A stretch of 64,000 nucleotides of DNA from Clostridia bacterium (GCA_045649415.1 JAZRPY010000006.1:14466-78465); one strand, 5' to 3'. Counted from the stretch's first letter, positions 3,116 through 39,692 are shown. Numbers and translations: made by a program. The notes: generated from the letters alone by a model not told the origin.

Positions 3116-3144
3116 TTTACAACAGCAGATTTTTGAGTTATAAT
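3116..3144 (+). promoter_or_regulatory. Sigma-A-type promoter of the BMC operon
   Basis: TTTACA - 17 nt - TATAAT, about 65 nt upstream of the aldolase ATG. It is preceded by phased TTTAAA repeats. Confidence 0.5.
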
Positions 3145-3209
3145 CAAATAAGAAACCAAAAAAAACAAAATAAAACAAATTTTTATAAAAACATAGGAGG
3201 GGCTTTGAT

Positions 3210-4049
3210 ATGATTAAGTCAGATTATGAAATCAAAAAAGAAATTTGTGAAATTGGCAGAAGAATTTACGAAGACGGATTTGTTGCTGCAAACGACGGTA
3301 ACATCTCAGTTAAGGTAGATGACAATACCTTTTTTACAACACCTACAGGTGTCAGCAAGGGTTATATGACTCCTGACATGATCTGTAAGGTGGATGGAAC
3401 AGGTAAATTAAAGGAGCCAAACAAGTGGAAGCCATCATCAGAATTTAAGATGCACTTGAGAGTGTATCAGGAGAGAAGTGATGTAAATTCAGTTGTTCAC
3501 GCTCATCCACCAATAGCTACATCATTTGCTATTGCAGGCATTCCTCTGGACAAGTTAATTATGCCAGAAGCAGTTATTTTCCTTGGTGCAGTGCCTATCG
3601 CTGATTACGGCACACCATCAACTATGGAAATTCCTGATTCATTGATGCCATACTTGCAGGACTATGATGCAATTTTGCTTGCAAACCACGGTGCGCTAAG
3701 TTTTGGTTGTGACTTAAACACTGCATTCTTCAGAATGGAATCAACAGAATTCTATGCAAAATTATTGATGTATGCTCGCTTGTTGGGTGGAGAAAAGGAA
3801 ATTCCATGTGGAGAGGTTAAGAAGCTTATCGACCTTCGTAAGTCATTCGGCGTATCAGGAAAGCACCCATTAGAGAAAATCTGCCCAGGATGCTACACAG
3901 GTGGAGATGCTGCTAAGGATTTAACTCCAACTGAAGCAGATGCAAAGTTTGCATCAGGCTCATGCTCAAATGGCAGCTGCTCAAACAAGTCTGTTGAAGA
4001 TATCGTTGCAGAGGTTACAAAGAGAGTTTTAGCTCAATATAATAAATAA
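3210..4049 (+). CDS. Class II aldolase (L-fuculose-1-phosphate aldolase-like) with a roughly 60-aa C-terminal extension ending in a putative encapsulation peptide
   Basis: FucA/adducin-type motifs AANDGNISV, HAHPP and ANHGALSFG. After the roughly 215-aa core comes a linker GSCSNGSCSN and an amphipathic tail SVEDIVAEVTKRVLAQYNK. AGGAGGGG RBS. Confidence 0.85.
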   Translation: MIKSDYEIKKEICEIGRRIYEDGFVAANDGNISVKVDDNTFFTTPTGVSKGYMTPDMICKVDGTGKLKEPNKWKPSSEFKMHLRVYQERSDVNSVVHAHPPIATSFAIAGIPLDKLIMPEAVIFLGAVPIADYGTPSTMEIPDSLMPYLQDYDAILLANHGALSFGCDLNTAFFRMESTEFYAKLLMYARLLGGEKEIPCGEVKKLIDLRKSFGVSGKHPLEKICPGCYTGGDAAKDLTPTEADAKFASGSCSNGSCSNKSVEDIVAEVTKRVLAQYNK

Positions 4050-4077
4050 TCAATAACTTGCAGAAGGGACTTTTAAT

Positions 4078-5016
4078 ATGGCAAAGCTATATACGGGTTT
4101 CGGGGATAAAGGCTATACCCAGACTATTAACAACAAACATATTTCAAAGTCTGACCCTGTTATTGAACTTCTTGGAACAATTGATGAGTTTACATCGGTT
4201 TTAGGTGTTGCAAAGGCTCACTCTCATGATAAGGACCTGATTTTTGATATTGAGCTTGTTCAAAAAAAGCTTGTATCCATAATGGGCGAAATATCAGGAG
4301 GAGCAAAATCTGTTACTCAGGATTGCATAAAGGCAGTTGAGAGCTTGTGTAACAAGTACTATGATGATTCAGTGAAGGAATTTATCCTTCCTGGAAAAAA
4401 TCTTGTATCAGCACAGCTTGATGTTGCAAGAGCAGTTATCCGTAGAGGAGAAAGAGTCGGAGTAAAGGCAATGCAGATAGGAAGAATAAATAACCTTCTT
4501 GTTACATATATAAATCGTTTGAGTGATTTAATCTATGCAATGGCAAGATATGCAGAAAAGGAAGAGGAGCTTTCTGAGGGAATTGCAAACACAGGTGAGG
4601 GATTAACCCTGCTTCTTGCAAAGGAAATCGCATTGGCAGTTGAGAAAAGAGCAGAGCAACTTTCAAAAAAGGTTGTTGTTGCAATCACTGACAGTGGAGC
4701 AAATCTCTTGCTACTACATTCTATGGATGATGCATACATTGCAAGTTGCAGAATAGCTCAGGATAAGGCATATACTGCAGTTGCACTAAAAATGCCAACC
4801 CACAAGGCGTTAGCTGAGTCAAGGGGAGGCAAGCTTGACGGACTTATGGTGACGGATAACAACAAAATCTCACTATTGGGTGGAGGATATCCACTTGTTA
4901 TAGGAAACAAAATTGTGGGAGGAATCGGAGTTTCGGGAGGAACTGCCGAGGAGGACACAGAATTTGCACACTTTGGCGCGTTGTATGCAGAAAGGAGGTC
5001 TGAATACAATGGATGA
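4078..5016 (+). CDS. pduO: PduO-type ATP:cob(I)alamin adenosyltransferase fused to a GlcG/DUF336 (heme-binding-like) domain
   Basis: N-terminus MAKLYTGFGDKGYTQT is typical of PduO-type adenosyltransferases. The C-terminal half contains GGGYPLV..GGIGVSGGTAEED, typical of the DUF336/GlcG domain as in full-length PduO. Confidence 0.8.
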   Translation: MAKLYTGFGDKGYTQTINNKHISKSDPVIELLGTIDEFTSVLGVAKAHSHDKDLIFDIELVQKKLVSIMGEISGGAKSVTQDCIKAVESLCNKYYDDSVKEFILPGKNLVSAQLDVARAVIRRGERVGVKAMQIGRINNLLVTYINRLSDLIYAMARYAEKEEELSEGIANTGEGLTLLLAKEIALAVEKRAEQLSKKVVVAITDSGANLLLLHSMDDAYIASCRIAQDKAYTAVALKMPTHKALAESRGGKLDGLMVTDNNKISLLGGGYPLVIGNKIVGGIGVSGGTAEEDTEFAHFGALYAERRSEYNG

Positions 5017-6436
5017 GAATATGATTGCACAGCTTGTTAAGGAAGTACTGGCAGGAATGGACCAGAAAACAGAGGAGAAAGCCTCTGATAAAAAACATCA
5101 ACTTGGCGTTTTTGACACAATGGAGGAAGCAATTCAAGCGTGCAACAAGGCTTATGAAACATTCAGATATTATAACAAGGAACAAAGAGAAAATATCATA
5201 AAAGAAATTCGCCGACTCACTCATGAGGAGGCAGAAACCATGGCAAAGCTTGCTGTGGAGGACACCAAGATGGGAAATGTTTATCACAAGATTTTAAAGC
5301 ATCATCTTGTGGCAGACAAAACTCCTGGCACTGAGGATTTGGAAACAAGGGCACTGTCGGGTGACAGAGGCCTGACCTTAGTTGAGATGGCACCCTATGG
5401 AATTATAGGCGCAATCACACCAAGCACCAACCCAAGCTGTACAGTAATATGTAACAGTATTGGAATGTTGGCTGCAGGAAACGGAGTTTTATTTAACCCA
5501 CACCCCCATGCAAAAAGGATTTCAGCTTATGCAGTAGATTTAGTAAACCGAGCAGTTTTAGCAGCAGGTGGACCTGAAAACATTGTTGCAACAGTTAAAA
5601 ATCCAACCATGGAATCATCCAACACAATGGTAAATCACCCATCGGTTCGTTTACTTGTGGCAACAGGTGGACCGGGAGTTGTGAAAATGCTTTTATCATC
5701 AGGAAAGAAAGCAATAGGTGCAGGTGCAGGAAACCCACCTGTTGTGGTTGATGATACTGCAGACATAGAAAAGGCCGCAAAGGACATTATCGACGGATGC
5801 ACATTCGACAATAATCTGCCATGTATAGCAGAGAAGGAATGCTTCGTAATGAGAAATGTGGCAGATGAGTTAGTTCACTATATGCAAAAAAATGGTGCGT
5901 ACTTATTAACAAGTGAGCAAACAAAGCAACTTGAAAAGGTTGTTTTGGTAGAGGCTCCTCCCAAAAACCCTGGTGACAAGCCAAAGCTTGTTATCAATAA
6001 GGATTGGGTAGGCAGAGATGCTAAAAAGATATTAGCACAAATCGGCGTAAATGCAGCAGATGATATTCGTTGTATCATATGCGAAACTGAGTTTAGTCAG
6101 GCATTTGTTCAGACAGAGCTTATGATGCCGATACTTCCGATAATAATATGCGAAACCTTTGAGGATGCTATGGAAATGGCAGTCAAGGCAGAGCATGGAA
6201 ATCGTCATTCTGCACATCTTCACTCAAAGAATGTTGACCATATGACAAGCTTTGCAAAGGCAATATGCACAACAATCTTTGTGAAGAATGCACCGAGCTA
6301 TGCAGGAATTGGCTTTAATAGTGAAGGACACACAACCTTTACAATCGCAGGACCTACAGGTGAGGGAATTACCTCGGCAAGAAGCTTCACCCGTCAGAGA
6401 AGATGCGTGTTGGTTGACAGTCTTTCCATAATATAA
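5009..6436 (+). CDS. CoA-acylating aldehyde dehydrogenase (PduP/EutE family) with an N-terminal encapsulation peptide
   Basis: ATG 5009 is 8 nt after AGGAGG and overlaps the pduO stop. It has the catalytic-Cys motif FDNNLPCIAEKE. The N-terminal amphipathic segment ENMIAQLVKEVLAGM is followed by a charged linker. Confidence 0.85.
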   Translation: MDENMIAQLVKEVLAGMDQKTEEKASDKKHQLGVFDTMEEAIQACNKAYETFRYYNKEQRENIIKEIRRLTHEEAETMAKLAVEDTKMGNVYHKILKHHLVADKTPGTEDLETRALSGDRGLTLVEMAPYGIIGAITPSTNPSCTVICNSIGMLAAGNGVLFNPHPHAKRISAYAVDLVNRAVLAAGGPENIVATVKNPTMESSNTMVNHPSVRLLVATGGPGVVKMLLSSGKKAIGAGAGNPPVVVDDTADIEKAAKDIIDGCTFDNNLPCIAEKECFVMRNVADELVHYMQKNGAYLLTSEQTKQLEKVVLVEAPPKNPGDKPKLVINKDWVGRDAKKILAQIGVNAADDIRCIICETEFSQAFVQTELMMPILPIIICETFEDAMEMAVKAEHGNRHSAHLHSKNVDHMTSFAKAICTTIFVKNAPSYAGIGFNSEGHTTFTIAGPTGEGITSARSFTRQRRCVLVDSLSII

Positions 6437-6454
6437 GAAAAGGAGTATGACGAT

Positions 6455-7669
6455 ATGAATTTCAACGAACAAAGAATTGAAGCATTGGTACAGGCAGTGT
6501 TGAAAGAGATGAACACTCAGGGAGCAGCTCCTCAGCCAAAGGCTGCAGGCTCAGTTCCAAAAACTGCTAAGGTAGCAATGCTCACAGGTTTGAATAAGTT
6601 CGAAATTCAGGAGCATCCAATCCCCGAAATCGGCGATGACGACATTTTGGTTAAGGTCGAAGGTTGCGGGATTTGTGGAACTGATGTTCATGAATGGAGA
6701 GCAGACCCATTCGGACTTATCCCTGTAGTTCTCGGTCACGAGGGAACAGGTGAAATTGTGGCAATGGGTAAGAACATAAAGGCCGACACTCAGGGAAATC
6801 CTGTGAAGGTTGGCGACAAGATTGTAACAAGCGTATCTGCTTGTGGTGAATGTCCAATGTGTAAATTGCATCCTGAACTACCACACTTGTGTCAGAGCGC
6901 AAAAATTCAGGGACTTTTACCTGACGATAATAAAAACCACTTGCATGGTTGGTTTGCAAACTATATGCTCATTGAAAAGGGTGCAACCTTCTTCAATGTA
7001 TCAGATATGACCTTAGACCAGAGAATTTTGATTGAGCTTGCAGCAGTTGCAACTCACGCAGTTCGTCGTGCAAGTGACACAAGATTGATGCCAATGGGTG
7101 CAACAATTGTTATTCAGGGCTGTGGTCCTGTTGGATTGATGGTTATAGCTCACTTAAAAACAAAGGGCTACAGAAACATCATTGCAATTGACGGAACAGA
7201 GCAAAGACTTGATATGGCAAAGAAATTGGGTGCATCCCACACAATCAACTTCAGAGATTTTAAATCAGTTGAAGACAAGGTTAAGTATGTAAAGGATTTA
7301 ACATTCGGCTTGGGTGCAGATTTTGCATTCCAATGTACAGGAGCTCCTGCAGCTGCCGCTGAGGTATGGAAGTATGTGAGAACAGGTGGAGGCCTTTGTG
7401 AAATGGGATTCTTCGTAAACAACGGAGAATGCTCCATCAACCCACACTTCGATATTTGTCAGAAGGAAATCACAGTTGTTGGCTCATGGACATATGGAGC
7501 TTTGGAATATCCTGACACAATCGCATTCGTTAAGCAATGCTGTGAAATGGGCATTCCTTTAACAGACCTTATTACTCACCGTTACGGATTAGACGAAATG
7601 GATGAGGCTATGGAGGTAAATGTTGCTCAGAAGGGCTTGAAAATTGCTTACATAAATAAGGAGATATAA
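6455..7669 (+). CDS. Zinc-dependent medium-chain alcohol dehydrogenase with a roughly 35-aa N-terminal extension (encapsulation peptide plus Pro/Ala linker)
   Basis: MDR motifs CGICGTDVH, GHEGTGEIV, structural-Zn CGECPMCK and Rossmann GCGPVGL. The N-terminus is NEQRIEALVQAVLKEMN followed by TQGAAPQPKAAGSVPK. Confidence 0.85.
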   Translation: MNFNEQRIEALVQAVLKEMNTQGAAPQPKAAGSVPKTAKVAMLTGLNKFEIQEHPIPEIGDDDILVKVEGCGICGTDVHEWRADPFGLIPVVLGHEGTGEIVAMGKNIKADTQGNPVKVGDKIVTSVSACGECPMCKLHPELPHLCQSAKIQGLLPDDNKNHLHGWFANYMLIEKGATFFNVSDMTLDQRILIELAAVATHAVRRASDTRLMPMGATIVIQGCGPVGLMVIAHLKTKGYRNIIAIDGTEQRLDMAKKLGASHTINFRDFKSVEDKVKYVKDLTFGLGADFAFQCTGAPAAAAEVWKYVRTGGGLCEMGFFVNNGECSINPHFDICQKEITVVGSWTYGALEYPDTIAFVKQCCEMGIPLTDLITHRYGLDEMDEAMEVNVAQKGLKIAYINKEI

Positions 7670-7672
7670 CAA

Positions 7673-8011
7673 ATGAATGCAATAGGCATTATTGAAATTT
7701 TTGGTTTTGTCTGTGCGATAAAGGTTGCAGACGCAGCAGCAAAGGCTGCAGATGTGAAGGTTATTGCAATAGACTCAAATAAGCCTGCAAACGCTGAAAC
7801 CGTTGATGTCCCTCTCATTATGTGCGTTAAAATTCAAGGCAGTGTATCTGCAGTTGAAGCGGCAGTTGAGGCAGGAAAGAAAGCGGCCGAGGCCTGCACA
7901 GGCTTGATACAGGCACATGTTATCCCTCGTCCCACAGAGGATGCTGAAAAAATGGCACTTCGTTCAAGTGTGGGTAGGGACATACTTGGCAAAATAAAGA
8001 ACAACGCATAA
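7673..8011 (+). CDS. BMC-H-type shell protein, divergent (extended pore-loop region and C-terminal tail)
   Basis: Pfam00936-like fold signature: IGIIE...AADAAAKAADV...QGSVSAVEAAVEAG...AHVIPRP. The canonical K-I-G-S-G pore loop is replaced by DSNKPANAETVDVPLIM. Confidence 0.75.
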   Translation: MNAIGIIEIFGFVCAIKVADAAAKAADVKVIAIDSNKPANAETVDVPLIMCVKIQGSVSAVEAAVEAGKKAAEACTGLIQAHVIPRPTEDAEKMALRSSVGRDILGKIKNNA

Positions 8012-8042
8012 AAAGGTTTAAAAAAGAAAGGAAAGTGTGAAA

Positions 8043-8312
8043 ATGGAAGCATTAGGAATGATTGAAACAAGAGGCTTGACAGCATCAATCGAAGCAGCAG
8101 ATGCTATGACAAAGGCTGCAAATGTTACCTTAGTAGGAACTGAAAAAATTGGTTCAGGCTTGGTAAGTGTTATCGTAAGAGGCGATGTAGGCGCAGTTAA
8201 GGCTGCAGTTGAAGCAGGTGCTCAGGCTGCAAGCAGATTGGGCGAATTAGTTGCTCAACATGTGATTCCTCGTCCTCACGGAGATGTTGAAAAGATTTTG
8301 CCCTCTATCTAA
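8043..8312 (+). CDS. BMC-H shell protein (PduA/EutM-like hexamer)
   Basis: [12 protein letters not shown]...[12 protein letters not shown]...[25 protein letters not shown]...HVIPRPH. ATG 8043 is preferred over GTG 8037 by comparison with the paralog at 8844. Confidence 0.9.
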
Positions 8313-8343
8313 GCTAAAAATTAGACAGAAGGGGTGTTAAGAA

Positions 8344-8817
8344 ATGAGCTTTTCAATCGGACTCATAGAGGTTCAGGCTCTCGGTCATGCAATTACTGTT
8401 GCAGACGAGATGCTAAAAGCGGCAGATGTTAAATTCATTGCAACCGAAAGAAAATTAGGTGGCAGATTGGTCACATTGGTTGTTAAGGGAAATGTTTCGG
8501 CAGTTAATGCAGCAATCGAAACAGGACGAAATCTTGCCGAGTCGTTGGGATGCTTAAAGGCGGCAGAGGTAATTGCCCGCCCCCATCCCGAAATATTTAA
8601 ATTCCTACATATTGATGAGGAAGAAAAGCCTGTTAGCAAAGAGGAGGCTAAGGTGGAAGAGAAAAAGGTTGAGGAAAAAACCACAAAAACAACCACCACC
8701 AAAAAGCCTGCAACTAAAAAGGCTACAGGTAGTAAAACAAGTTCTAAAGCAGGAGCAAAAAAGCCTGCTTCAGATAAAAAGACTTCAACAAGAGGTCAGA
8801 AGAAAACAACAAAGTAA
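8344..8817 (+). CDS. BMC-H shell protein with a roughly 65-aa Glu/Lys/Thr-rich low-complexity C-terminal tail
   Basis: BMC domain (IGLIEVQALGHAITVADEMLKAADV...VKGNVSAVNAAIETG...VIARPHPE). The tail is EEEKPVSKEEAKVEEKKVEEKTTKTTTTKKPATKKATGSKTSSKAGAKKPASDKKTSTRGQKKTTK. Confidence 0.85.
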   Translation: MSFSIGLIEVQALGHAITVADEMLKAADVKFIATERKLGGRLVTLVVKGNVSAVNAAIETGRNLAESLGCLKAAEVIARPHPEIFKFLHIDEEEKPVSKEEAKVEEKKVEEKTTKTTTTKKPATKKATGSKTSSKAGAKKPASDKKTSTRGQKKTTK

Positions 8818-8843
8818 ATAATTTTTTATAGGAGGTTTTTAAA

Positions 8844-9119
8844 ATGGCAGTAGAAGCATTAGGAATGGTAGAAACAAGAGGTTTGGTAGCAGCAATCGAG
8901 GCTGCAGATGCAATGGTTAAGGCAGCAAATGTAACCTTAATCGGAACAGAGAGAATTGGTTCAGGTTTGGTAACTGTTATGGTTCGTGGCGATGTTGGTG
9001 CAGTTCAGGCTGCAACAGACGCTGGTGCTGCAGCAGGCTCAAAGCTTGGTGAATTAGTATCTGTTCATGTTATTCCAAGACCACACAACGATGTGGAAAA
9101 AATTCTTCCAATTTTATAA
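8844..9119 (+). CDS. BMC-H shell protein (PduA/EutM-like hexamer), paralog of 8043..8312
   Basis: [14 protein letters not shown]...[21 protein letters not shown]...HVIPRPH. AGGAGG RBS. Confidence 0.9.
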
Positions 9120-9147
9120 TTTGAAGAACAAACTCGGCTACTCAAGG

Positions 9148-9173
9148 CTGTCGGCATTTTTGCCGACAGTTTT
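9148..9173 (+). terminator. Intra-operon hairpin (partial terminator or attenuator) after the shell-gene cluster
   Basis: Stem ctgtcggca/tgccgacag (9 bp), loop tttt, followed by tttt. It lies in the only long (101 nt) intergenic gap of the operon. Confidence 0.5.
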
Positions 9174-9220
9174 GGTGGCTTAGGTATTTATGATTTTTTT
9201 TGTAAAATGGAGGCAATCTT

Positions 9221-9865
9221 ATGACAGACACAAATTTGATAGAGTTAATCACTGAAAATGTTATAAAGGTACTTAATGAAAATGAAAATGCGTCAGGTGG
9301 TATTAAGGTTGGCGTATCAGCCCGTCATGTGCATCTGTCAAAGAAGGATTTGGAAACCTTGTTCGGAGCAGGCTATGAGCTAACACCCAAGAAAATACTC
9401 ATGGGTGACCAGTATGCTGCAGAGGAGTGTGTAACACTTGTTAGTCCGAGCTTGAGAAGTATTGAGGGCGTAAGAGTTTTAGGCCCCACAAGAGATGAAT
9501 CACAGATAGAAATTTCAAGAACTGACACCTTTAAATTAAAGGTTAGTCCCCCTGTTCGTCCGTCAGGAAAGATTAAAAACAGTGCTCCTATGGCATTGGT
9601 AGGACCAAAGGGAAGCGTGTTCTTGAACGAGGGCTGCATAATTGCAAATCGTCATATACATATGACACCAAGTGATGCGGCAAAATATGGAATTGTTGAC
9701 AATGACCTGGTGGATGTTGAAATCCAGAATGCAAAGCCAACAAGATATTATGATGTTCAGGTAAGAGTGAGAGAGGATTTCAACACAGAAATGCATATCG
9801 ACACGGATGATGCAAATGCAGCTGGTATAAAAACAGGCGACCATGTTGAAATTTTGAAAAGATAA
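9221..9865 (+). CDS. pduL: Phosphate acyltransferase PduL (phosphotransacylase) with an N-terminal encapsulation peptide
   Basis: Two PduL-type repeats (VGVSARHVHLS and ANRHIHMTPSDA). The N-terminal amphipathic segment is NLIELITENVIKVLNEN. Confidence 0.85.
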   Translation: MTDTNLIELITENVIKVLNENENASGGIKVGVSARHVHLSKKDLETLFGAGYELTPKKILMGDQYAAEECVTLVSPSLRSIEGVRVLGPTRDESQIEISRTDTFKLKVSPPVRPSGKIKNSAPMALVGPKGSVFLNEGCIIANRHIHMTPSDAAKYGIVDNDLVDVEIQNAKPTRYYDVQVRVREDFNTEMHIDTDDANAAGIKTGDHVEILKR

Positions 9866-9921
9866 GGTATGAAAATTATTCTTTGAGTACATAAAATGTA
9901 CTGCAGAAGGGATTGAGATAT

Positions 9922-10182
9922 ATGCTTTTAGCAAAGGTTACAGGTAGCATAATTTCCACAAGCAAGAATGATAAGCTTGTGGGCTACAAATTTATGACAG
10001 TTCAGCTTATTGAAAATGACAAGCTGACAGACAAATACTTGCTTGCAGTTGATGGAATTGGTGCAGGTATAGGCGAAAAGGTTATCATTGCAACAGGCAG
10101 TGCTGCAAGACTTGGTATCGACAGAAACGATGCGCCTGTTGATGCGGCAATTGTTGGAATAGTTGACGAAAAGCAGGGCTGA
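9922..10182 (+). CDS. BMC-P vertex (pentamer) protein, EutN/CcmL family
   Basis: MLLAKVTGSIISTSKNDKLVGYKFMTVQLI...DAAIVGIVD is typical of EutN/PduN. ATG 9922 is 9 nt after GAAGGG. Confidence 0.85.
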   Translation: MLLAKVTGSIISTSKNDKLVGYKFMTVQLIENDKLTDKYLLAVDGIGAGIGEKVIIATGSAARLGIDRNDAPVDAAIVGIVDEKQG

Positions 10183-10224
10183 TAACCATTTACCAATCAA
10201 TTTATAAGAAAAGGAGAGCTTGGC

Positions 10225-11556
10225 ATGACATTTGATGAGCTTTGCCGAATTACATATAATGCCGGAGTGGTGGGCGCCGGTGGTGCCGGATTTCCTACCC
10301 ACAAGAAATTCTCCAAGGATGTTAAGCAGATAGTTGTCAATGCTGCAGAATGTGAGCCATTGATGATGGTTGACCATCATATATTGGAGCATCATTTAAA
10401 GGCATTGGTGGACACTTTGAATATTTTGCTTGATATGATGGAAGCAGATGAGGCTATTATCGGTATAAAGGGCAAGAATATGCATCTTTTAGATGATGCT
10501 ATTGTTGTTTCATTACAAGGTACTCGTGTTAAAATTAAAGAAATTCCTGACATATATCCTGCAGGAGATGAGGTTGTTCTGGTGTACGAAACCACAGGCA
10601 AAATCATTCCTGAGGGCAGTATTCCTGTTATGGTGGGAGTTATGGTTATAAATGTGGAAACTATTTATAATATCTACAATGCAATAAACAAAGACAAGCC
10701 TGTTGTTGATAAGTATGTAACAATAGCAGGTGATGTTTCGAGGGATATAACAATAAAAGCACCTATCGGTATGAAGGTGTCGGAGCTTTTAGAGGCGTGT
10801 GGAGTATCAACTGAGGGAAAATCTGTGATTGATGGTGGACCTATGATGGGTAAGCTTATCGATTTGGAAACTGCAGTTGTTACCAAAACCACTAAGGGAA
10901 TTTTAGTATTCCCCAACACTCACTCAATAGTGCAAAGAAAGAAAATGCCACTTTCGGTGAGTATGAAAAGAGCAGCAGCTGCTTGTTGTAACTGCAGTAT
11001 GTGTTCGGATGTATGTCCGAGATATCTGCTTGGATATTCCCTGAGAGTAGATAAAACCCTGAGGGCAGTATCTCACTCGGAGGTGCAGAACAAGGAAGCG
11101 TTTTTGCAAAGCTCGCTTTGTTGTGGCTGTGGAGTGTGCACAGTTATTGGTTGTCAGCAGATGTTAGATCCACAGGCGTTATCTATGGAGGTCAAGCGTT
11201 TGTTAGGCAAGAATGGATACAGACGAACTAACAATAAGGCACCAGAAAAGGTGAGAGAGGAAAGAGCATCACGACTTATTTCCTCACAAAAGCTTATTGA
11301 TAGGTTGGGAATCAGAAAGTATGTGAAGGACCGTGTGGACAGAGAGTATATTGAATTTAATCCAAAAACGGTCACAATTCCGATGTCCCAGCATGTTGGA
11401 AAGCCTGCAACACCTGTTGTGAAAACAGGGGATATGGTTAAGGTTGGGCAATTGATTGCAAAAACAGATGAAAATGCCTTGGGCACCACCATCCATGCAA
11501 GTATCAATGGAAAAATAACCAAGGCAGACGACAGATTTATAACAATAGAAGCTTAA
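10225..11556 (+). CDS. PduS/RnfC-like Fe-S flavoprotein (NADH-binding, SLBB, two 4Fe-4S motifs, C-terminal RnfC_N-like barrel domain)
   Basis: GVVGAGGAGFPTHKK motif. Cys clusters CCNCSMCSDVCP and CCGCGVCTVIGC. The C-terminal segment IPMSQHVGKPATPVVKTGDMVKVGQLIA...IHASINGKI resembles the RnfC N-terminal domain, so the domain order is PduS-like rather than RnfC-like. Confidence 0.75.
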   Translation: MTFDELCRITYNAGVVGAGGAGFPTHKKFSKDVKQIVVNAAECEPLMMVDHHILEHHLKALVDTLNILLDMMEADEAIIGIKGKNMHLLDDAIVVSLQGTRVKIKEIPDIYPAGDEVVLVYETTGKIIPEGSIPVMVGVMVINVETIYNIYNAINKDKPVVDKYVTIAGDVSRDITIKAPIGMKVSELLEACGVSTEGKSVIDGGPMMGKLIDLETAVVTKTTKGILVFPNTHSIVQRKKMPLSVSMKRAAAACCNCSMCSDVCPRYLLGYSLRVDKTLRAVSHSEVQNKEAFLQSSLCCGCGVCTVIGCQQMLDPQALSMEVKRLLGKNGYRRTNNKAPEKVREERASRLISSQKLIDRLGIRKYVKDRVDREYIEFNPKTVTIPMSQHVGKPATPVVKTGDMVKVGQLIAKTDENALGTTIHASINGKITKADDRFITIEA

Positions 11557-11584
11557 TACTCTAAAAAGGGTATGGAGGTCGCAT

Positions 11585-12130
11585 ATGAATTCAATAGGAT
11601 TGGTTGAAGTTAAGAATATAAGCAAGGGCATAAGAGTAACTGATGAAATGCTAAAGGGTGCAGGAATAACACTTATTCAGGCAGGTTCTGTATGTCCGGG
11701 AAAATATGTAACAATAGTTGGTGGAGATTTATCCTCCATCCAGTCAGCAGTTGATACTGCTGAAAAGCATGCAGAGGATGCACTGATCGACAAGTTCGTG
11801 ATCGGCAATCTTGGAGAAAAGGTGTTTGATGCCATTTGTGGTACTGCAGAGGTGAAGGACAAAAAGGCACTTGGTATTATCGAAACCTTTACAGCAGCCT
11901 CGGCAATCCTGGCAGCAGATGCAGCTGTTAAGGCTGCAATGATAAAGCTGATTGAGGTCAGGGTTGCTCGTGGTATGGGTGGAAAGTGCTTTGTCACATT
12001 AACAGGTGAGGTTGCAGATGTTCAGGCAGCAGTTGATGCAGGTGCAAAAATTGCAGCAGATGACGGTGTTTTAATTAACACCGAGGTAATCGCAAACCCA
12101 CATCCTGAGCTATGGGATGCAATTGTTTAA
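11585..12130 (+). CDS. BMC-T shell protein (tandem BMC domains, PduT-like)
   Basis: 181 aa containing two BMC domains (IGLVEV... and LGIIETF...VIANPHPE). A single Cys37 in GSVCPGKY (codon at 11693-11695) occupies a position like the PduT 4Fe-4S ligand. Confidence 0.8.
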   Translation: MNSIGLVEVKNISKGIRVTDEMLKGAGITLIQAGSVCPGKYVTIVGGDLSSIQSAVDTAEKHAEDALIDKFVIGNLGEKVFDAICGTAEVKDKKALGIIETFTAASAILAADAAVKAAMIKLIEVRVARGMGGKCFVTLTGEVADVQAAVDAGAKIAADDGVLINTEVIANPHPELWDAIV

Positions 12131-12151
12131 AACTTTTGTGAAAGAGAGCAA

Positions 12152-12928
12152 ATGAGTATGTTAGCTGTTGAGAGAAGAAGCTCAATTGAGCAGTTAATTC
12201 AAAAAAATAAAAGCGTGCTTGTGTTAGAACTGGCAAAACAATTTGATGTAACCACTGAAACTATTCGCGGTGACTTGGAAAAGCTTGAACGCCAGGGAGT
12301 TTTAATCCGTACCTATGGTGGTGCTACCTTGGTTGAGGAGATTTCTGATGCAGATATGAGCACACACGAAAGAGATACTGTGAACTTTGAGGGTAAGCAG
12401 AGAATTGGCAGGCGTGCTGCAGAAATGATTAAGGACGGAGAAACGATATTCCTTGATGCAAGTACCTCGTGCCTGCATATCGCAAGAAATTTAAAAGACA
12501 AAAAGTCTGTGACCGTCATAACCAATGCAGAACGAGTTGTGGCAGAACTGTCGCAATATGAAAATGTTAAGGTTATTTGTACAGGTGGCAGACTTGTTAA
12601 TAAAAATCTTTCCTATGAGGGAAGAATGGTTGAGGATACTATAAGAAAGTATTATTACGCAAATAAGTGCTTTTTCTCCTGTGCAGGAATTACATTGTCA
12701 AGGGGAATAACTGAAAGGTCGGAGGCTGAGGCAGAAATTAAAAAAGCAATGCTTGACTGCTCCGAAACCTCAATTTTCCTTTGTGACCATAAAAAGCTCG
12801 GAAGAATTGGCGTGCCGATTCTTGCAAAGGTGAGCGATATCGATTATATGATAACCGATATCAAGCTTGATGAAGAATGGAAACTTGCATTAGAAGAAAG
12901 TGAAGTTAACTTAATAACTGTAGATTAA
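12152..12928 (+). CDS. DeoR-family transcriptional regulator (HTH plus sugar-phosphate-binding DeoR C-terminal domain)
   Basis: N-terminal wHTH VLELAKQFDVTTETIRGDLEKLERQG and a DeoR C-terminal domain (IFLDASTSC...ITN). It is the last gene of the BMC operon. Confidence 0.85.
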   Translation: MSMLAVERRSSIEQLIQKNKSVLVLELAKQFDVTTETIRGDLEKLERQGVLIRTYGGATLVEEISDADMSTHERDTVNFEGKQRIGRRAAEMIKDGETIFLDASTSCLHIARNLKDKKSVTVITNAERVVAELSQYENVKVICTGGRLVNKNLSYEGRMVEDTIRKYYYANKCFFSCAGITLSRGITERSEAEAEIKKAMLDCSETSIFLCDHKKLGRIGVPILAKVSDIDYMITDIKLDEEWKLALEESEVNLITVD

Positions 12929-13055
12929 AAAAGTGAACCAATAGTCTCAACTCCAAATGTTATTGTGGCAGAACCGAAACGAAAGTCTGTTAAAAATATG
13001 GGGATGCAAAGACGAAAATCCAACAAAATAGGAGCTTGATTTCTACTACAAAAAC

Positions 13056-13086
13056 GAAACACCGATATAATAAATATCGGTGTTTT
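13056..13086. terminator. Bidirectional terminator between deoR-like and the radical SAM gene
   Basis: Stem gaaacaccgatat/atatcggtgtttc, flanked by an A-run upstream and a T-run downstream. Confidence 0.7.
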
Positions 13087-14087: not shown

Positions 14088-14116
14088 TTGACAATAGTTG
14101 GTGAATATTATATAAT
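14088..14116 (+). promoter_or_regulatory. Consensus sigma-A promoter upstream of the rhamnulokinase gene
   Basis: TTGACA - 17 nt - TATAAT, an exact consensus, about 60 nt upstream of ATG 14177. Confidence 0.6.
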
Positions 14117-14176: not shown

Positions 14177-15658
14177 ATGGCAAAATACAAGTTTTTAGCA
14201 TTCGATTTTGGTGCTTCAAATGGTAGAGCAATGCTTGCCACATTGGAGAAGGGAAAAATCACCTTGGAGGAAAAGCATCGTTTTCCAAACGACTCAGTAA
14301 GCGTTAATGGTGGAATGTACACAGATTCATTGCGTTTATTCCATGAAATCAAGCAAGGAATTTTAGCTTGCGCAAACTCAGGTGACAGGGATATCACAAG
14401 TATTGGTATTGATACCTGGGGTGTTGACTATGGTATGCTTGATAAGGACGACCAGTTAATTGGCAACCCATATCACTATCGTGACACAAGAACTGACGGT
14501 ATGATAGAAAAGGTATGCGAAAAGGTTTCTGAAAAGGAAATATTTGAGGAAACAGGTGTTGCTTTTAATTGGTTTAACACTTTATATCAGGTCTATAGCG
14601 AAAAGCTTGCAGACAATCTTCGTTTCAGAGAGGGAAAAACGCTTTTGTTCACTCCTGACCTATTCAATTTCTTCCTCACAGGTAAAAAAAGAGTTGAATA
14701 CACAATTGCATCAACATCACAGATGTTTGATTCAAAAAATCACACCTGGGCAGAGGGAATTTTAGGTAAGCTTGGCTTAAGCTCAAAGATATTCCCTGAA
14801 ATGATATATCCCGGAGAAAAGGTGGGCGAGTTGACCGAGGAAATTGCAGAGGAGCTTGGAGTTGCAAGAATTCCTGTTATGGCAGTTGCATCTCACGACA
14901 CAGGCTCGGCAGTTGCATCTGTGCCTGTGGTTGACCAGGACGATTTTATATATATTTCAAGTGGTACCTGGAGTTTGATGGGTGTGGAATTAAAGGAGCC
15001 TATCGTTTCTGAGAAATCAAGAAAGTTTAACTTCACCAATGAGGGTGGCGTTAACAAAACAATTCGTTTCTTAAAGAGCATTATGGGCTTGTGGCTTGTT
15101 CAGGAATCCCGTCGTCAATGGGGCAGAGAGGGTGAGCTTTTAAGCTTTGGTGAGCTTGCAGATTTGGCAAGTAAGGAAAAACCATTTGTTAGCTTTATCG
15201 ATCCTGACTATGAGGATTTCCAGACACCTGGAAATATGCCCGAGAAAATCAGGAACTATTGTCGCAAAACCAATCAGCCTGTGCCTGAAACAAAGGGTGA
15301 GGTTGTTCGTTGTATCACTCAAAGCCTTGCATTCAAGTATCGCAAGACCATTGAGGATATGGAAGAGGTTACCAACAAAAAGTACTCAGTAATCAATATT
15401 GTTGGTGGTGGAATTCAGGATAAGATGCTTTGTCAGTTCACTGCAAATGCAACAGGCAGAACTGTTGAAGCAGGACCAGTTGAGGCAACTGCTATCGGAA
15501 ATGCGATTGTGCAGGCAATGGCAGCAGGGGTTGTGAAGGACTTGAACGAGGGCAGAAAAATCATTAAAAACTCCTTCGATATTGCAAAATATGAGCCTCA
15601 GGATTCAGAGGAATGGAACAAGGCATACGAAAAGTGGCTTTCAATAGTTTCAGAATAA
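14177..15658 (+). CDS. rhaB: Rhamnulokinase (FGGY carbohydrate kinase family)
   Basis: FGGY N-terminal motif AFDFGASNGR. NFTNEGGVNKTIRFLKSIMGLWLVQE resembles the RhaB-specific NxTNEGG...LKNIMGLWLL segment, recalled from memory. Confidence 0.75.
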   Translation: MAKYKFLAFDFGASNGRAMLATLEKGKITLEEKHRFPNDSVSVNGGMYTDSLRLFHEIKQGILACANSGDRDITSIGIDTWGVDYGMLDKDDQLIGNPYHYRDTRTDGMIEKVCEKVSEKEIFEETGVAFNWFNTLYQVYSEKLADNLRFREGKTLLFTPDLFNFFLTGKKRVEYTIASTSQMFDSKNHTWAEGILGKLGLSSKIFPEMIYPGEKVGELTEEIAEELGVARIPVMAVASHDTGSAVASVPVVDQDDFIYISSGTWSLMGVELKEPIVSEKSRKFNFTNEGGVNKTIRFLKSIMGLWLVQESRRQWGREGELLSFGELADLASKEKPFVSFIDPDYEDFQTPGNMPEKIRNYCRKTNQPVPETKGEVVRCITQSLAFKYRKTIEDMEEVTNKKYSVINIVGGGIQDKMLCQFTANATGRTVEAGPVEATAIGNAIVQAMAAGVVKDLNEGRKIIKNSFDIAKYEPQDSEEWNKAYEKWLSIVSE

Positions 15659-21936: not shown

Positions 21937-22064
21937 CAGTGCATAGTTAAGGGTTTTGCCAAAAAATTCTTAACGGGTTAACGCTTCGGTGTGTAAGAAA
22001 GGGTGCACAACGGGCGACAGAGTACACCCTTTCAAAAATAAAAAATATGGGAGGATTTGAGACT

Positions 22065-25000
22065 ATGAAAAAGAATCTCAAAAAAGTAATTTCAGCTGTT
22101 ATTGCTTTAGCTCTTTCAGTAAGCTCTGTTGCTTTCGCAGCTCCTGAGTTTACAGACGTAGCAGAAACAGCAAACTATGCAGAAGCTGTAAACACACTTG
22201 CTGCATTAGATGTTATTTCAGGTTACGAAGATGGAACCTTCAAGCCTGACAATAATATCACAAGAGCAGAAGTAGCAACTCTTATTGCTGCAGCTCTTAA
22301 CAGATCAGCAGACGCTGAGGGTGCAAAGGGCACAACAGCTTTCGCTGATGTTAACACAGAAGCTAAGTTATGGGCTTCAGGTTACATAAACATTGGTACA
22401 TCTGTTGGTTACATCTCAGGTTATGAAGATGGAACCTTCAAGCCAGACAACAATGTAACATTCGCAGAAATCGTTTCAATGTTGGTTCGTGCAACAGAGT
22501 ACGGCAGATATGCAGAATACCTTGGTGGATGGCCTAACGGTTACCTTGCAGTAGGTAAGGAAAAGGGCATCACAGAGGGCGTTTCAGCTGCTAACAACAC
22601 ACCTGTAACAAGAGCACAAGTTGCTCAAATGATCTACAATGCTGTAACAAAGACACCTGTTGTTGAGTCAACAACTCTTACAACAAATGCTAATGGTGAC
22701 TTAGTTCCAAGCATGGACATCATGGATGGTAGAGTTAGAAACGGTGTTAGAACACCATACAAGACATTGTTAACAGAGAAGCACGACGCTTATGTTGTAG
22801 AAGGTAAAGTTACAAAGACAAGCAAGACTGATTCAACATATGATGCTGGAACAGTTGAGTTCACAATCGAGTACACAGAAAACTTCAACGACAGCGCAGT
22901 TGTTTTAGCTAAGAACTACACCTACGGTGCTGGTAATGCAGCTCAGGAAATGTTCGTTGGCGAAACAGATGCTGAAGACTACTTATTAACATATGCTAAG
23001 GCTATCGTTAAGGTTGACGAATATGGCGATAACACAATCGTTGCATTTGTTCCTTCAGGCAGAAACGAAACTGTTTCTTATGACGCTACATTGTTTGATG
23101 TTGCTGATTACGACAGAAACAACACATTGTTTGCTTTGTCAACAGGTACAGACGCAACAAAGAACAATAACGACTTAGTTAACACAGTTGCTACAGCTAC
23201 TACTGCTGAAAAGGCAACAGGTAACTACATTAAGTTCTATGAAACAAAGGACGCTACAAAGTCACAAAGATACAACTTGTCAGAAAAGGTTACATTATAT
23301 GTAAACGGTGTTAAGAAGGCTGGCTGGAATGGCACAGCTAACACAATGACAAGACTTGACTTTGAAACATATGTTAAGAACAATGCTACAGGTGTTGTAA
23401 CACTTGTTGATGTTTTCAATGCTAACGATACTGCAGCTGATAAGGGCTTTGATTACATTTTCGTAACATACTATGCTACAGCTAAGGTTACAAATGTTAA
23501 CGCTACAAATGGTAGAATCAATATCACAGGTAACACTGAATCAGGTGCTACAATTAAGTTAGACCCTCAAGACGAGGATTTAGTTTACAACATTTACTAC
23601 AATGGTGAAGAAGTTGAAATCACTGACATCCAAAAGGATGACATCCTTTCAGTTATCTTCGATACAAATGCTGGTTTCTCATCATCAAAGTTCTATGATA
23701 TCTATGTATCAAGAAATGTTGTTGATGGTAAGTTCACAGGCAGAAATGACACAGACTCAGAAGTAACAGTAGGTGGCAACAACTACGAATTCGTTAAGTC
23801 TGCAACACATTCAAGCTTTATCGCTGAAAGAATGGGTTCAGAGTTCACATTGAACCTTGACTACTTCGGCAGAATCTTTGATTATGACACATTAGCTACA
23901 TCAGTTAAGTATGGTATCCTTGATGCTTACACAATCGCTTCTTCAGACGATTACTACAAGGCTACTATCTACGCAATGGATGGTACAGCTAAGACATTTG
24001 AAGTAGATACAGCAAGAATTCCTAATATTACAACTACTGCAACTCTTGCATTCGACTCAAACGATACTGACACAGGTTCAGACAATGTTCCTGACGAAAC
24101 ACTTACTGCTGGAACATATCCAACAGATACAGTATTGAAGACTCTTACCTATGAGTGGCAAGGTCCAACAACTAAGGCAAAGAGAGCAATCCAAGATCGT
24201 GTAATTGAGTACACAGTTTCTTCAACAACAGGCAGAATCACAAATGTTACACTTCTTGCTGCTGCAGCATCATCATCTGCATCAACAGATGAATATGATA
24301 TTGACAGAAACAGAATTGGTTCAGTTGTATTGAGCGATGCTACAACAATTGTTAACGCTATCGAATATGTAGGTAAGGCTAAGCCTAACACAACTCACTT
24401 AGATATTAGCGATCTTTCAGCTTTCGTTGACGAAACAAAGTACACAACATATGCTTATGGTACAAAGAATGCTGACAACTCATATCCATTTGTTATTGTA
24501 ACAGTTGGTGCAAGCGATATCACATCTGCTACAAACTTTGCAATTGTTACAAAGTGGTATGGCCAGAGCATTGATGAGAACGGTGATCCAATCTACAAGT
24601 TTGATGCAATGTATCAAGGTGGAACAGAGCCTGTTTCTCTAACAATCGCTGAAGATGGTAAGATTGATAATGTTACAGTTTCTTCATCTAGCACATTGAA
24701 CAGAGGCGACATCATCGTATTCGTTCAAGACGCTAACAGCGAAGTTAAGAAGGTAGAAACAGTTGCTTCAGTTGCTAACTTAGGTTTGAGCAACCACTTA
24801 GAGTCAGAAGCTAAGACTGCATTCACATCACAATCAGCTATGTTTACAGCAATTGCTGCCAACATTGCAGGTTCAGCTTCAACAGGCGCAATCGCTAACT
24901 GGGTTGTTGCTGATAACAACAGTGGTTGGACAACAGCTAACTTGAACGATGATACAAAGGCAGTTATCGTTGCTGGTCCTATCGTTGATGTACTTGCTAA

Positions 25001-25349
25001 GTCATTCTCAATCGCTGAGAGCATGAACTCATCTGTAGATACAGTTGTTTCTCAATCAGCTTTGACAAACAGCTCTGCTGTAACAGGTGTTTACGAAGTT
25101 ATGATCACAGACGAAACTAAGGTTTATGTTTGGGACTTCAATGAAGCAGACAACTATCAATTAGTTGAAGAAGATTTGGGCACAGGCGCAATCGTTGCTT
25201 CACAATTCGACGCTACAACATTTAACACTGCAACAGAGACAATTGACTGGGGTAGTGCTACATTATCAACTGGCTGCACAATCAACTATGCATTTGCTAA
25301 GACAGTTGAAGGCGAAGCTACAGAAGTATTCGTAATCCTTGGCAAATAA
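22065..25349 (+). CDS. S-layer / cell-surface protein with three N-terminal SLH domains
   Basis: Signal peptide MKKNLKKVISAVIALALSVSSVAFA. Three SLH repeats are present (FTDV...ISGYEDGTFKPDNNITRAEVATL; FADV...ISGYEDGTFKPDNNVTFAEIVSM; ...PVTRAQVAQMIYN). About 900 aa of Thr/Ala/Asn/Asp-rich sequence follow. Codon usage appears strongly biased. Confidence 0.85.
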   Translation: MKKNLKKVISAVIALALSVSSVAFAAPEFTDVAETANYAEAVNTLAALDVISGYEDGTFKPDNNITRAEVATLIAAALNRSADAEGAKGTTAFADVNTEAKLWASGYINIGTSVGYISGYEDGTFKPDNNVTFAEIVSMLVRATEYGRYAEYLGGWPNGYLAVGKEKGITEGVSAANNTPVTRAQVAQMIYNAVTKTPVVESTTLTTNANGDLVPSMDIMDGRVRNGVRTPYKTLLTEKHDAYVVEGKVTKTSKTDSTYDAGTVEFTIEYTENFNDSAVVLAKNYTYGAGNAAQEMFVGETDAEDYLLTYAKAIVKVDEYGDNTIVAFVPSGRNETVSYDATLFDVADYDRNNTLFALSTGTDATKNNNDLVNTVATATTAEKATGNYIKFYETKDATKSQRYNLSEKVTLYVNGVKKAGWNGTANTMTRLDFETYVKNNATGVVTLVDVFNANDTAADKGFDYIFVTYYATAKVTNVNATNGRINITGNTESGATIKLDPQDEDLVYNIYYNGEEVEITDIQKDDILSVIFDTNAGFSSSKFYDIYVSRNVVDGKFTGRNDTDSEVTVGGNNYEFVKSATHSSFIAERMGSEFTLNLDYFGRIFDYDTLATSVKYGILDAYTIASSDDYYKATIYAMDGTAKTFEVDTARIPNITTTATLAFDSNDTDTGSDNVPDETLTAGTYPTDTVLKTLTYEWQGPTTKAKRAIQDRVIEYTVSSTTGRITNVTLLAAAASSSASTDEYDIDRNRIGSVVLSDATTIVNAIEYVGKAKPNTTHLDISDLSAFVDETKYTTYAYGTKNADNSYPFVIVTVGASDITSATNFAIVTKWYGQSIDENGDPIYKFDAMYQGGTEPVSLTIAEDGKIDNVTVSSSSTLNRGDIIVFVQDANSEVKKVETVASVANLGLSNHLESEAKTAFTSQSAMFTAIAANIAGSASTGAIANWVVADNNSGWTTANLNDDTKAVIVAGPIVDVLAKSFSIAESMNSSVDTVVSQSALTNSSAVTGVYEVMITDETKVYVWDFNEADNYQLVEEDLGTGAIVASQFDATTFNTATETIDWGSATLSTGCTINYAFAKTVEGEATEVFVILGK

Positions 25350-33613: not shown

Positions 33614-33700
33614 TGGTGCCGGTGGTCGGGGTCGAACCGACACGGTATCGCTACCACGGGATTTTGAGTCCCGCGCGTCTGCCAATTCCACCACACCGGC
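33614..33700 (-). tRNA. tRNA-Leu (anticodon CAA), CCA encoded
   Basis: Manual fold: acceptor GCCGGTG/CACCGGC; anticodon stem CGGGA/TCCCG with loop CT-CAA-AA; long variable arm GGTA-GCGA-TACC; T-arm GTCGG-TTCGACC-CCGAC; 3' ACCA. Confidence 0.95.
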
Positions 33701-39454: not shown

Positions 39455-39692
39455 ATTTATCACCTTTAATATATATTCTAAAAGGAATATTTTTTTTTGT
39501 TTTGTGCATTATTATTATATATCAAACAAAAAAACCTGTCAATTACTAACTAATGAATAAATTTGTGAATTTTTAGTTAAAACACTTTTAATTTGGAAAA
39601 ATATATGATATACTTTATTATGGAGTGGAATAGTATTCAAACATTGTTAAACATTTCACATTATAAGAAATTAAAGAATTGGAGGAATAAAA

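Follow-up and report, generated by a model that had tools for sequence, protein, structure and literature searches.

We analysed a 64,000-nt stretch of DNA (hereafter, the window) from an uncultured gut member of the Clostridia (GCA_045649415.1, JAZRPY010000006.1:14466-78465; positions are counted from the first nucleotide of the window), which carries a bacterial microcompartment (BMC) operon headed by a class II aldolase gene. The operon occupies positions 3116-13086 and comprises 13 genes, all intact and co-directional (3210-12928), which encode, in this order, the class II aldolase, a PduO::DUF336 fusion, an aldehyde dehydrogenase (AldDH), a Zn-dependent alcohol dehydrogenase (Zn-ADH), four BMC-H shell proteins, PduL, a BMC-P shell protein, PduS, a BMC-T shell protein and a DeoR-family regulator. 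The Pfam and NCBIfam domain matches are strong and unambiguous, and bear out the gene content and common direction listed in an initial annotation of this DNA. With a TTTACA-17-TATAAT promoter at the 5′ end and a bidirectional terminator at the 3′ end, the 13 genes form one promoter-to-terminator unit. Judging from its sequence, this operon most likely encodes an organelle handling the toxic aldehyde that arises from rhamnose or fucose breakdown. Its features are as follows.

3116..3144, + strand: sigma-70-type promoter TTTACA-17-TATAAT, 11 of 12 consensus matches; 3116 is the first base of the -35 hexamer
3150..3179, + strand: conserved (A/T)AAAAC(A/C)AAA direct repeat, three copies, ~10-nt period, lying 3′ of the -10 hexamer and 5′ of the ribosome-binding site (RBS); phylogenetic footprint
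3210..4049, + strand: FucA-like class II aldolase of 279 aa; Cys-rich linker, and encapsulation peptide (EP) helix at the C-terminus; PF00596, 160 bits
4078..5016, + strand: full-length PduO, ATP:cob(I)alamin adenosyltransferase fused to a DUF336/HbpS-like domain; PF01923, PF03928; TIGR00636, 140 bits, above cutoff
5009..6436, + strand: CoA-acylating AldDH with an N-terminal EP; NF011927, 694 bits against a cutoff of 403
6455..7669, + strand: Zn-ADH of the medium-chain dehydrogenase/reductase (MDR) type with an EP-like N-terminal extension of ~45 aa; PF08240, PF00107
7673..8011, + strand: BMC-H, 112 aa, with a loop insertion; PF00936
8037..8312, + strand: BMC-H, PduA-like, 91 aa; PF00936, 109 bits
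8344..8817, + strand: BMC-H, 157 aa, with a C-terminal tail seen in the translation; PF00936
8844..9119, + strand: BMC-H, PduA-like, 91 aa; PF00936, 106 bits
9133..9180, + strand: stable stem-loop in the intercistronic space 3′ of the last BMC-H gene and 5′ of pduL; minimum free energy of -36.3 kcal/mol for 9120-9220, z -5.4
9221..9865, + strand: PduL phosphotransacylase with an N-terminal EP; PF06130, 240 bits; NF011652, 244 bits, above cutoff
9913..10182, + strand: BMC-P pentamer protein (EutN/PduN); PF03319; start codon ambiguous (TTG at 9913)
10225..11556, + strand: PduS-type flavin/FeS (iron-sulphur) oxidoreductase; PF01512, PF10531, PF13534 and a C-terminal PF13375
11585..12130, + strand: PduT-type tandem-domain BMC-T with the pore motif C-P-G-K-Y; two PF00936; TIGR02526 match below cutoff
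12152..12928, + strand: DeoR-family regulator, AgaR-like; PF08220, PF00455; best NCBIfam model AgaR, 196 bits, below cutoff
13056..13086, both directions: bidirectional intrinsic terminator that closes the operon, predicted from sequence

Gaps of 0-30 nt with one exception had been described for this locus. A single outlier of 101 nt, on the pduL side of the last BMC-H gene, is indeed present, but the other gaps range from -8 to 47 nt and three of them exceed 30 nt. The negative value belongs to the AldDH gene, the true start of which is the ATG at 5009, with a good RBS and an 8-nt overlap with pduO, whereas the listed open reading frame (ORF) began at the TTG at 4913.

For comparison, we collected relatives of the operon by scanning one genome per species with an alignment of the aldolase, which returned 80 loci that were taken with 10-kb flanks; six further loci were added by exact-protein look-up (L-numbers below denote these relative loci). 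In eight relatives CTTTACA-N17-TATAAT is kept in upstream DNA that is otherwise unalignable. Using a position weight matrix (PWM) built without the window, the triple repeat just 3′ of this promoter is the top site in the 64 kb (35.9 bits, with the next independent match at 21 bits), and the motif recurs on the sense strand 5′ of the aldolase or glycyl-radical enzyme (GRE) gene in loci of all three types described below. We regard the repeat as a good operator candidate for the AgaR-like DeoR regulator; alternatively, it may be a 5′UTR element. A weaker copy at 2901-2930 (21-22 bits) was considered as a second upstream operator and rejected, since the relatives do not have it except for one reverse-strand match in L004. 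The stem-loop in the 101-nt gap has counterparts of unrelated sequence at the equivalent position in most relatives; its probable role is in attenuation or mRNA stabilisation, setting how much shell protein is made relative to the distal gene products, and it fits the stepwise drop of induction along the corresponding operon of C. phytofermentans. No cobalamin or other riboswitch was found near the operon, the only Rfam match in the 64 kb being a single tRNA (33617-33700, - strand).

The aldolase carries the FucA-type Zn-binding His triad, the catalytic Glu and the phosphate-binding Ser, Thr, Gly and Asn, and in an alignment of 15 orthologues N31, T46, G47, S76, S77, E78, H97, H99 and H160 do not vary; the assignment of these residues to the Zn, catalytic and phosphate sites follows the E. 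coli FucA numbering, which we take to apply here. In their translations, each of the four core enzymes bears an amphipathic EP-like terminal helix, located at the C-terminus in the aldolase (...VEDIVAEVTKRVLAQY) and at the N-terminus in AldDH (ENMIAQLVKEVLAGM), ADH (EQRIEALVQAVLKEM) and PduL (TNLIELITENVIKVL). The aldolase helix (IVAEVTKRVL) is conserved among orthologues, and a C-terminal EP behind a variable, Cys-containing linker is a hallmark of the BMC-associated class II aldolases (PMC4594438). The nearest solved structure of AldDH is that of C. phytofermentans Cphy1178 (4c3s/5dbv), with 59% identity, while the nearest structures of Zn-ADH are uncharacterised or polyol/threonine dehydrogenases. 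Naming either the aldolase or Zn-ADH from curated models or solved structures was attempted and rejected, as all scores fall below the cutoffs and the ADH structures are uninformative. Zn-ADH is also a mosaic element: it is only 55-57% identical to its counterparts in the nearest relatives, the AldDH and BMC-H proteins of which reach 87-88% and 79-87%, respectively, and it is 75% identical to that of L002 and 65% to that of L012, a locus with PduCDE, which suggests allele replacement by recombination inside the cassette.

PduO matches the PduO-type structures 3ci1 and 2idx, and its motifs GDKG, F-I-L-P-G, RRxER and NRLSD, which correspond to the ATP- and corrin-site motifs of L. reuteri PduO, are intact. 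By PF01923, by its score above the TIGR00636 cutoff and by these site motifs, it belongs to the PduO-type adenosyltransferases. The PduS translation contains two Cys clusters and has the four-domain architecture described previously (PMC6325248), and the pore motif of PduT (C-P-G-K-Y) agrees with the published consensus for FeS ligands, C-P/S/A-G-K/R/S-Y/F. In PDU organelles, PduO, PduS and PduT constitute a B12-recycling set. Among the shell proteins, the tail of the third BMC-H spans ~70 residues of low complexity, rich in Lys, Thr and Ser and, unlike PduK, has no Cys motif.

The initial annotation had stated that no signature enzyme of the PDU, EUT or GRM type is present in or next to the locus, and this held for the whole window. 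Queries drawn from the relatives and confirmed by Pfam returned no tblastn match at E <= 1e-6 in the 64 kb for GRE, its activase, PduC, PduD, PduE or PduG, nor for RhaA, AckA, PduU or PduV/EutP, which were searched in the same way, and the Pfam matches of all large ORFs include no GRE, PduCDE or EutBC. The identical GRE queries detect GRE in 40 relatives.

A gene for the probable upstream step of the pathway lies outside the operon, 1.2 kb 3′ of it, with a convergent tRNA-modification radical-SAM gene in between.

14177..15658, + strand: rhamnulokinase-like FGGY kinase; TIGR02627, 489 bits (cutoff 528); fuculokinase model, 151 bits

The kinase gene has its own perfect TTGACA-17-TATAAT promoter (14088-14116). 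Its product is 40-54% identical to FGGY kinases adjoining the orthologous cassettes in 11 loci; rhaB, in several cases together with rhaA, stands beside orthologous cassettes in 11 other species, with the L045 kinase directly 3′ of DeoR, and rhaA and rhaB are the only sugar genes recurrently adjacent across the cassette family. We looked for an operator common to the aldolase and rhaB promoters and rejected it, as the AT-rich matches are at chance level and the family PWM misses the rhaB leader; co-regulation of the kinase is therefore unproven. The deoxyhexose substrate proposed earlier for this locus gains support from the rhamnulokinase-like gene and from rhaA/rhaB near the relatives, which, together with the FucA-type residues and the orthology and synteny with the GRM5 aldolase, point to rhamnose or fucose as the probable source of the aldehyde. 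In C. phytofermentans, fucose induces the GRM5 aldolase 86-fold and rhamnose 62-fold, with a range of 60-86-fold across the locus (PMC3557285). Two close relatives have other sugar-related genes nearby, namely a PfkB-family kinase gene 10 nt after DeoR in one (L081:19837-20751). In the other, an RbsD/FucU mutarotase-family gene (L083:6512-6943) precedes the cassette by 3 kb, and an AraC regulator lies downstream.

Throughout the relatives, the order aldolase, PduO or DUF336, AldDH, Zn-ADH, BMC-H genes, PduL, BMC-P, PduS, PduT and DeoR recurs, while the dehydratase varies. Half of the loci (40 of 80) are of the GRM5 type, with GRE 5′ of the aldolase, mostly accompanied by its activase and PduU and often by PduV/EutP; ~34 of the 80 have neither GRE nor PduCDE; and in three loci PduC (554 aa), PduD, PduE and PduG (612 aa) occupy precisely the place that separates the aldolase from PduO, and the N-termini of PduD and PduE are EP-like.

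L012:10859-15706: PduCDE-PduG cassette of a Eubacterium metagenome-assembled genome
L017:10870-15758: PduCDE-PduG cassette
L018:10841-15756: PduCDE-PduG cassette of Bianquea renquensis NSJ-32

In the literature that we searched, we found no description of PduCDE within an aldolase cassette, or of BMCs in Monoglobus-like bacteria. The three states are interspersed in a neighbour-joining tree of AldDH, which implies repeated gain or loss of the dehydratase. The window falls within a monophyletic clade that comprises at least 15 species-level lineages, none of which has an in-locus dehydratase, and in which the cassette occupies differing chromosomal neighbourhoods. Full-length PduO is found in the window, L001, L081, L083 and L006, while the other members (L002-L011, L006 aside, and L085) have DUF336 only or nothing at this position. 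Between the window and its nearest relatives, the proportion of synonymous differences (pS) is 0.5-0.9, i.e. saturated, with non-synonymous divergence (dN) of 0.04-0.37 and every ORF intact, that of PduO with its adenosyltransferase domain included; because of the saturation we give dN, pS and ORF integrity and report no dN/dS ratios. That the ORFs stayed intact over such a distance marks the cassette as a maintained unit and not a fresh deletion. Reduced forms do occur: the cassette at L086:10001-16816 consists of aldolase, PduO, AldDH, two BMC-H, PduL, BMC-P, PduS and PduT genes, and is devoid of Zn-ADH, two BMC-H and DeoR.

The locus is PVM-like by the catalogue definition (Axen 2014; Sutter 2021), with which it shares a class II aldolase as the only candidate signature enzyme; as our typing is by gene content, GRM5like is an alternative label. 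BMC shell genes are combined here with a PF00596 aldolase as the sole candidate for this role, GRE, PduCDE and EutBC are absent from the locus, the AldDH, phosphotransacylase and BMC-P are closest to GRM5 homologues, the host is a Firmicute, and the family tree of AldDH mixes GRM5 and dehydratase-less loci. One difference is that Axen found an ADH in only one PVM-like locus, whereas the locus studied here has Zn-ADH. The statement in the initial annotation that Firmicute loci of this kind are catalogued only bioinformatically agrees with the literature (PMC4207490, PMC8217296, PMC8156839): the PVM-like type was expanded by Sutter et al. 2021, and a gut survey, which termed it less characterised, listed it in Faecalibacterium, C. 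bolteae and Hungatella. PVM-like loci have been reported without satellite loci, and the BMC loci reported to co-occur with them are EUT2 and GRM1A, without mention of PDU or GRM3. The locus adds a member to a catalogued type and is not a new kind of system.

By descent, the locus belongs to the clostridial GRM5 lineage (C. phytofermentans Cphy_1174-1187; Roseburia inulinivorans), of which it is a close relative from which the propanediol dehydratase has been lost. The order from the aldolase to DeoR equals that of Cphy_1177-1187, and the shell set fits the GRM5 description. In contrast to GRM5, the upstream GRE (PF02901 and PF01228), activase, PduU and PduV/EutP are replaced by housekeeping genes, a full-length PduO separates the aldolase from AldDH, and four BMC-H genes follow the ADH gene instead of the three in C. 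phytofermentans. With the PVM organelle of Planctomycetes and Verrucomicrobia (Planctopirus limnophila), the locus has in common the aldolase as signature enzyme, the DeoR regulator and the proposed direct processing of lactaldehyde by the core enzymes. However, a kinship with this organelle does not extend beyond the aldolase: the shell, the gene order, AldDH, PduL, PduS/PduT and Zn-ADH are those of the clostridial GRM5. The PVM gene order is "completely different" and is found in other phyla with aerobic metabolism, its shell of two BMC-H and a triplet of distinct BMC-P is not the one encoded here, and the ADH role is filled by a lactate/malate dehydrogenase-family protein, with acetate kinase in the locus, in place of a Zn-dependent MDR enzyme and no AckA. 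What stands of the earlier proposal that the two systems follow the same logic is an aldolase-signature metabolosome without an in-locus dehydratase or lyase, while for the conversion of lactaldehyde to lactyl-CoA there is a live alternative. With the PDU system, the locus shares PduO (adenosyltransferase plus DUF336), PduS, PduT, PduL and a PduP-like AldDH, but it has no PduCDE, PduGH, PduB-type BMC-T or PocR, PduCDE and PduG having gone unmatched throughout the 64 kb; the cassettes of L012, L017 and L018 are those of the window with PduC, PduD, PduE and PduG added.

Under the reading that we put forward, L-rhamnose and/or L-fucose would be isomerised and phosphorylated in the cytosol, with the FGGY kinase encoded at 14177-15658 as the likely kinase, and rhamnulose-1-phosphate or fuculose-1-phosphate would pass into the shell, where the EP-tagged aldolase would yield dihydroxyacetone phosphate (DHAP), which exits to glycolysis, and L-lactaldehyde. 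Within the shell, AldDH would convert one lactaldehyde into lactyl-CoA and NADH, PduL would turn lactyl-CoA into lactyl-phosphate and thereby recycle CoA, and Zn-ADH would reduce a second lactaldehyde to 1,2-propanediol, recycling NAD+. Lactyl-phosphate would then give ATP and lactate via a kinase encoded elsewhere, and 1,2-propanediol would be excreted. PduS and PduT may serve as an electron conduit across the shell, and DeoR would hold the operon off at the A-rich triple repeat 3′ of the -10 hexamer until the sugar phosphate builds up. As no dehydratase is present, this route, proposed for PVM, would be the only cofactor-balanced one in a closed shell, and its direct processing of lactaldehyde has a precedent in the PVM organelle, which has been studied by experiment. 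We give an even chance to this specific scheme, in which rhamnulose- or fuculose-1-phosphate is split into DHAP and lactaldehyde, and the latter is disproportionated to lactyl-CoA/lactyl-phosphate and 1,2-propanediol.

Several observations weigh against it. The aldolase stays below every NCBIfam equivalog cutoff (105-113 bits for the best FucA models, with cutoffs of 250-264) and scores alike for FucA, 3-oxo-tetronate-4-phosphate decarboxylase and other family members (105-116 bits); what the curated models indicate is membership of the superfamily only. AldDH retains the hydrophobic, propionaldehyde-type tunnel of Cphy1178, since the catalytic Cys and the tunnel residues I421 and I433 (Cphy1178 numbering) are kept; propionaldehyde is the best substrate of Cphy1178, and the authors of its structure held I421/I433 to disfavour hydroxy-aldehydes. 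Absence of an acyl-phosphate kinase, sugar isomerase and transporter, first recorded for the operon, extends to the 64-kb window. Finally, a motif-intact PduO is encoded with PduS and PduT, yet no B12 enzyme is encoded nearby. In the main rival, a serious possibility although the less probable one, the cassette supplies only the shell and core of an organelle that makes propionate, with the dehydratase encoded elsewhere, most likely the B12-dependent PduCDE/PduGH and less so GRE with its activase. Zn-ADH would then make 1,2-propanediol from lactaldehyde, and dehydration of the diol would give propionaldehyde, to be converted by AldDH into propionyl-CoA and by PduL and a kinase into propionate and ATP, while PduO and PduS would regenerate adenosylcobalamin in the shell. 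Preservation of the PduO motifs and reading frame at synonymous saturation and the presence of PduS and PduT agree with this, as do the PduCDE-PduG insertions of L012, L017 and Bianquea renquensis at the very position between the aldolase and PduO, the tunnel of AldDH, and the distribution of the adenosyltransferase domain, which is commoner in GRE-less than in GRE loci (14/37 versus 3/40, Fisher p = 0.002, uncorrected for phylogeny). Moreover, Anaerobium acetethylicum is annotated with a GRM5-like shell/core operon without a dehydratase and a three-subunit propanediol dehydratase elsewhere in its genome (PMC5322786), although there, unlike in the window, the aldolase is also encoded elsewhere. 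Yet several GRM5 loci with the B12-independent GRE contain PduO or DUF336 too, which makes PduO an unreliable marker of a B12 enzyme, and the retention of PduO-type genes in non-B12 organelles was noted as a puzzle in the literature of 2014 and 2019. In a sister subclade, the adenosyltransferase domain is entirely lost while the cassette is still retained, so a B12 enzyme is not needed for cassette retention; and a distant dehydratase also sits poorly with the negative search of the 64 kb, the missing cobalamin riboswitch and the PVM-like loci reported without satellites. Nor can the tunnel decide between the two: its positions are I/L and I in 67/67 AldDHs of the family, from every locus type (PVM AldDHs not being among them), and because they are identical across types we rejected them as a discriminator; all that can be read from them is the lack of a visible adaptation to a hydroxy-aldehyde.

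An aldolase acting on another sugar phosphate, such as 5-deoxyribulose-1-phosphate or ribulose-1-phosphate, with AldDH, ADH and PduL processing acetaldehyde or glycolaldehyde, is improbable in our estimate. Low and similar model scores of the aldolase would allow it, class II aldolases have been described as promiscuous (PMC4207490), the flanks of close relatives vary, as with the PfkB kinase of L081 and RbsD/FucU of L083, and acetaldehyde would suit the hydrophobic tunnel; against this stand the strict synteny and orthology with the fucose- and rhamnose-induced GRM5 aldolase, the rhamnulokinase-like gene adjoining the locus, and rhaA/rhaB as the sole sugar genes that recur next to the family. 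Least credible, and very unlikely indeed, is a remnant left after a GRM5 or PDU-type locus shed its dehydratase, now decaying or expressed without a working organelle: reductions such as that of L086 and a degenerate F-x-L-P-G motif in the PduO of L016, L019 and L040 are what decay would produce, but the 13 ORFs have all stayed whole in the window and across at least 15 lineages at the above dN and pS values, and conservation extends to the promoter, operator-like repeat, RBSs, EPs and catalytic residues.

In the sister subclade, a DUF336-only protein (L004:10924-11406, L005:7876-8463 and L085:10915-11400) takes the place of PduO; it has an N-terminal EP-like helix (KTIDELLSEVAKKL) followed by a Pro-rich linker, so that DUF336 itself is probably a microcompartment cargo. 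Tentatively, we would picture the family as a modular chassis, the dehydratase module of which has been repeatedly swapped or dropped (GRE and activase upstream, PduCDE-PduG-PduO internal, or none), with the window representing a stable state that keeps the B12-recycling PduO/PduS/PduT trio under selection and catalytically intact, without an in-cis B12 enzyme; either the shell recruits a dehydratase from elsewhere, or PduO/DUF336, PduS and PduT have a B12-independent job in the metabolosome. On the evidence above, this picture is possible but doubtful as a whole.

Besides the operon and the kinase gene, the larger ORFs of the window code for housekeeping or sporulation functions; they include the end of gyrA and genes for cyclophilins, GerM, gatAB, SMC, ftsY, dpaAB, spoIIE, phosphoenolpyruvate carboxykinase (PEPCK), tuf/fusA, gap, spoIIIA, sigE/sigG, mnmE and gltX, a content that supports the earlier view of the host as a spore-former. 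The host shares 89% EF-G identity with Candidatus Ornithomonoglobus intestinigallinarum. The DUF6062-PEPCK gene pair at window positions 38708-41462 is also present 5-9 kb upstream of the cassette in L085 (L085:984-4923). Two further ORFs stand out.

22047-25349, + strand: S-layer homology (SLH) protein, 1100 aa, N-terminal SLH domains, no other Pfam match
43835-44407, + strand: ORF of 190 aa, no Pfam match

Deoxyhexose breakdown by gut Clostridia decides the fate of the fucose and rhamnose of pectin and mucin, that is, whether other microbes are fed by the resulting 1,2-propanediol and lactate or propionate is formed instead. Predicted aldolase organelles without a dehydratase are common among metagenome-assembled genomes from the gut, and the window locus is a clean and complete example of them. 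The most useful by-product of our analysis is the natural series formed by its relatives, which differ in the dehydratase (GRE, PduCDE or none) and in PduO (full-length, DUF336-only or absent). This series could be used to probe the roles of PduO, PduS and PduT without B12 chemistry, and the use of lactaldehyde by PduP-like AldDHs. If PduO/DUF336, PduS and PduT do have a B12-independent job, this would address why non-B12 organelles keep them.

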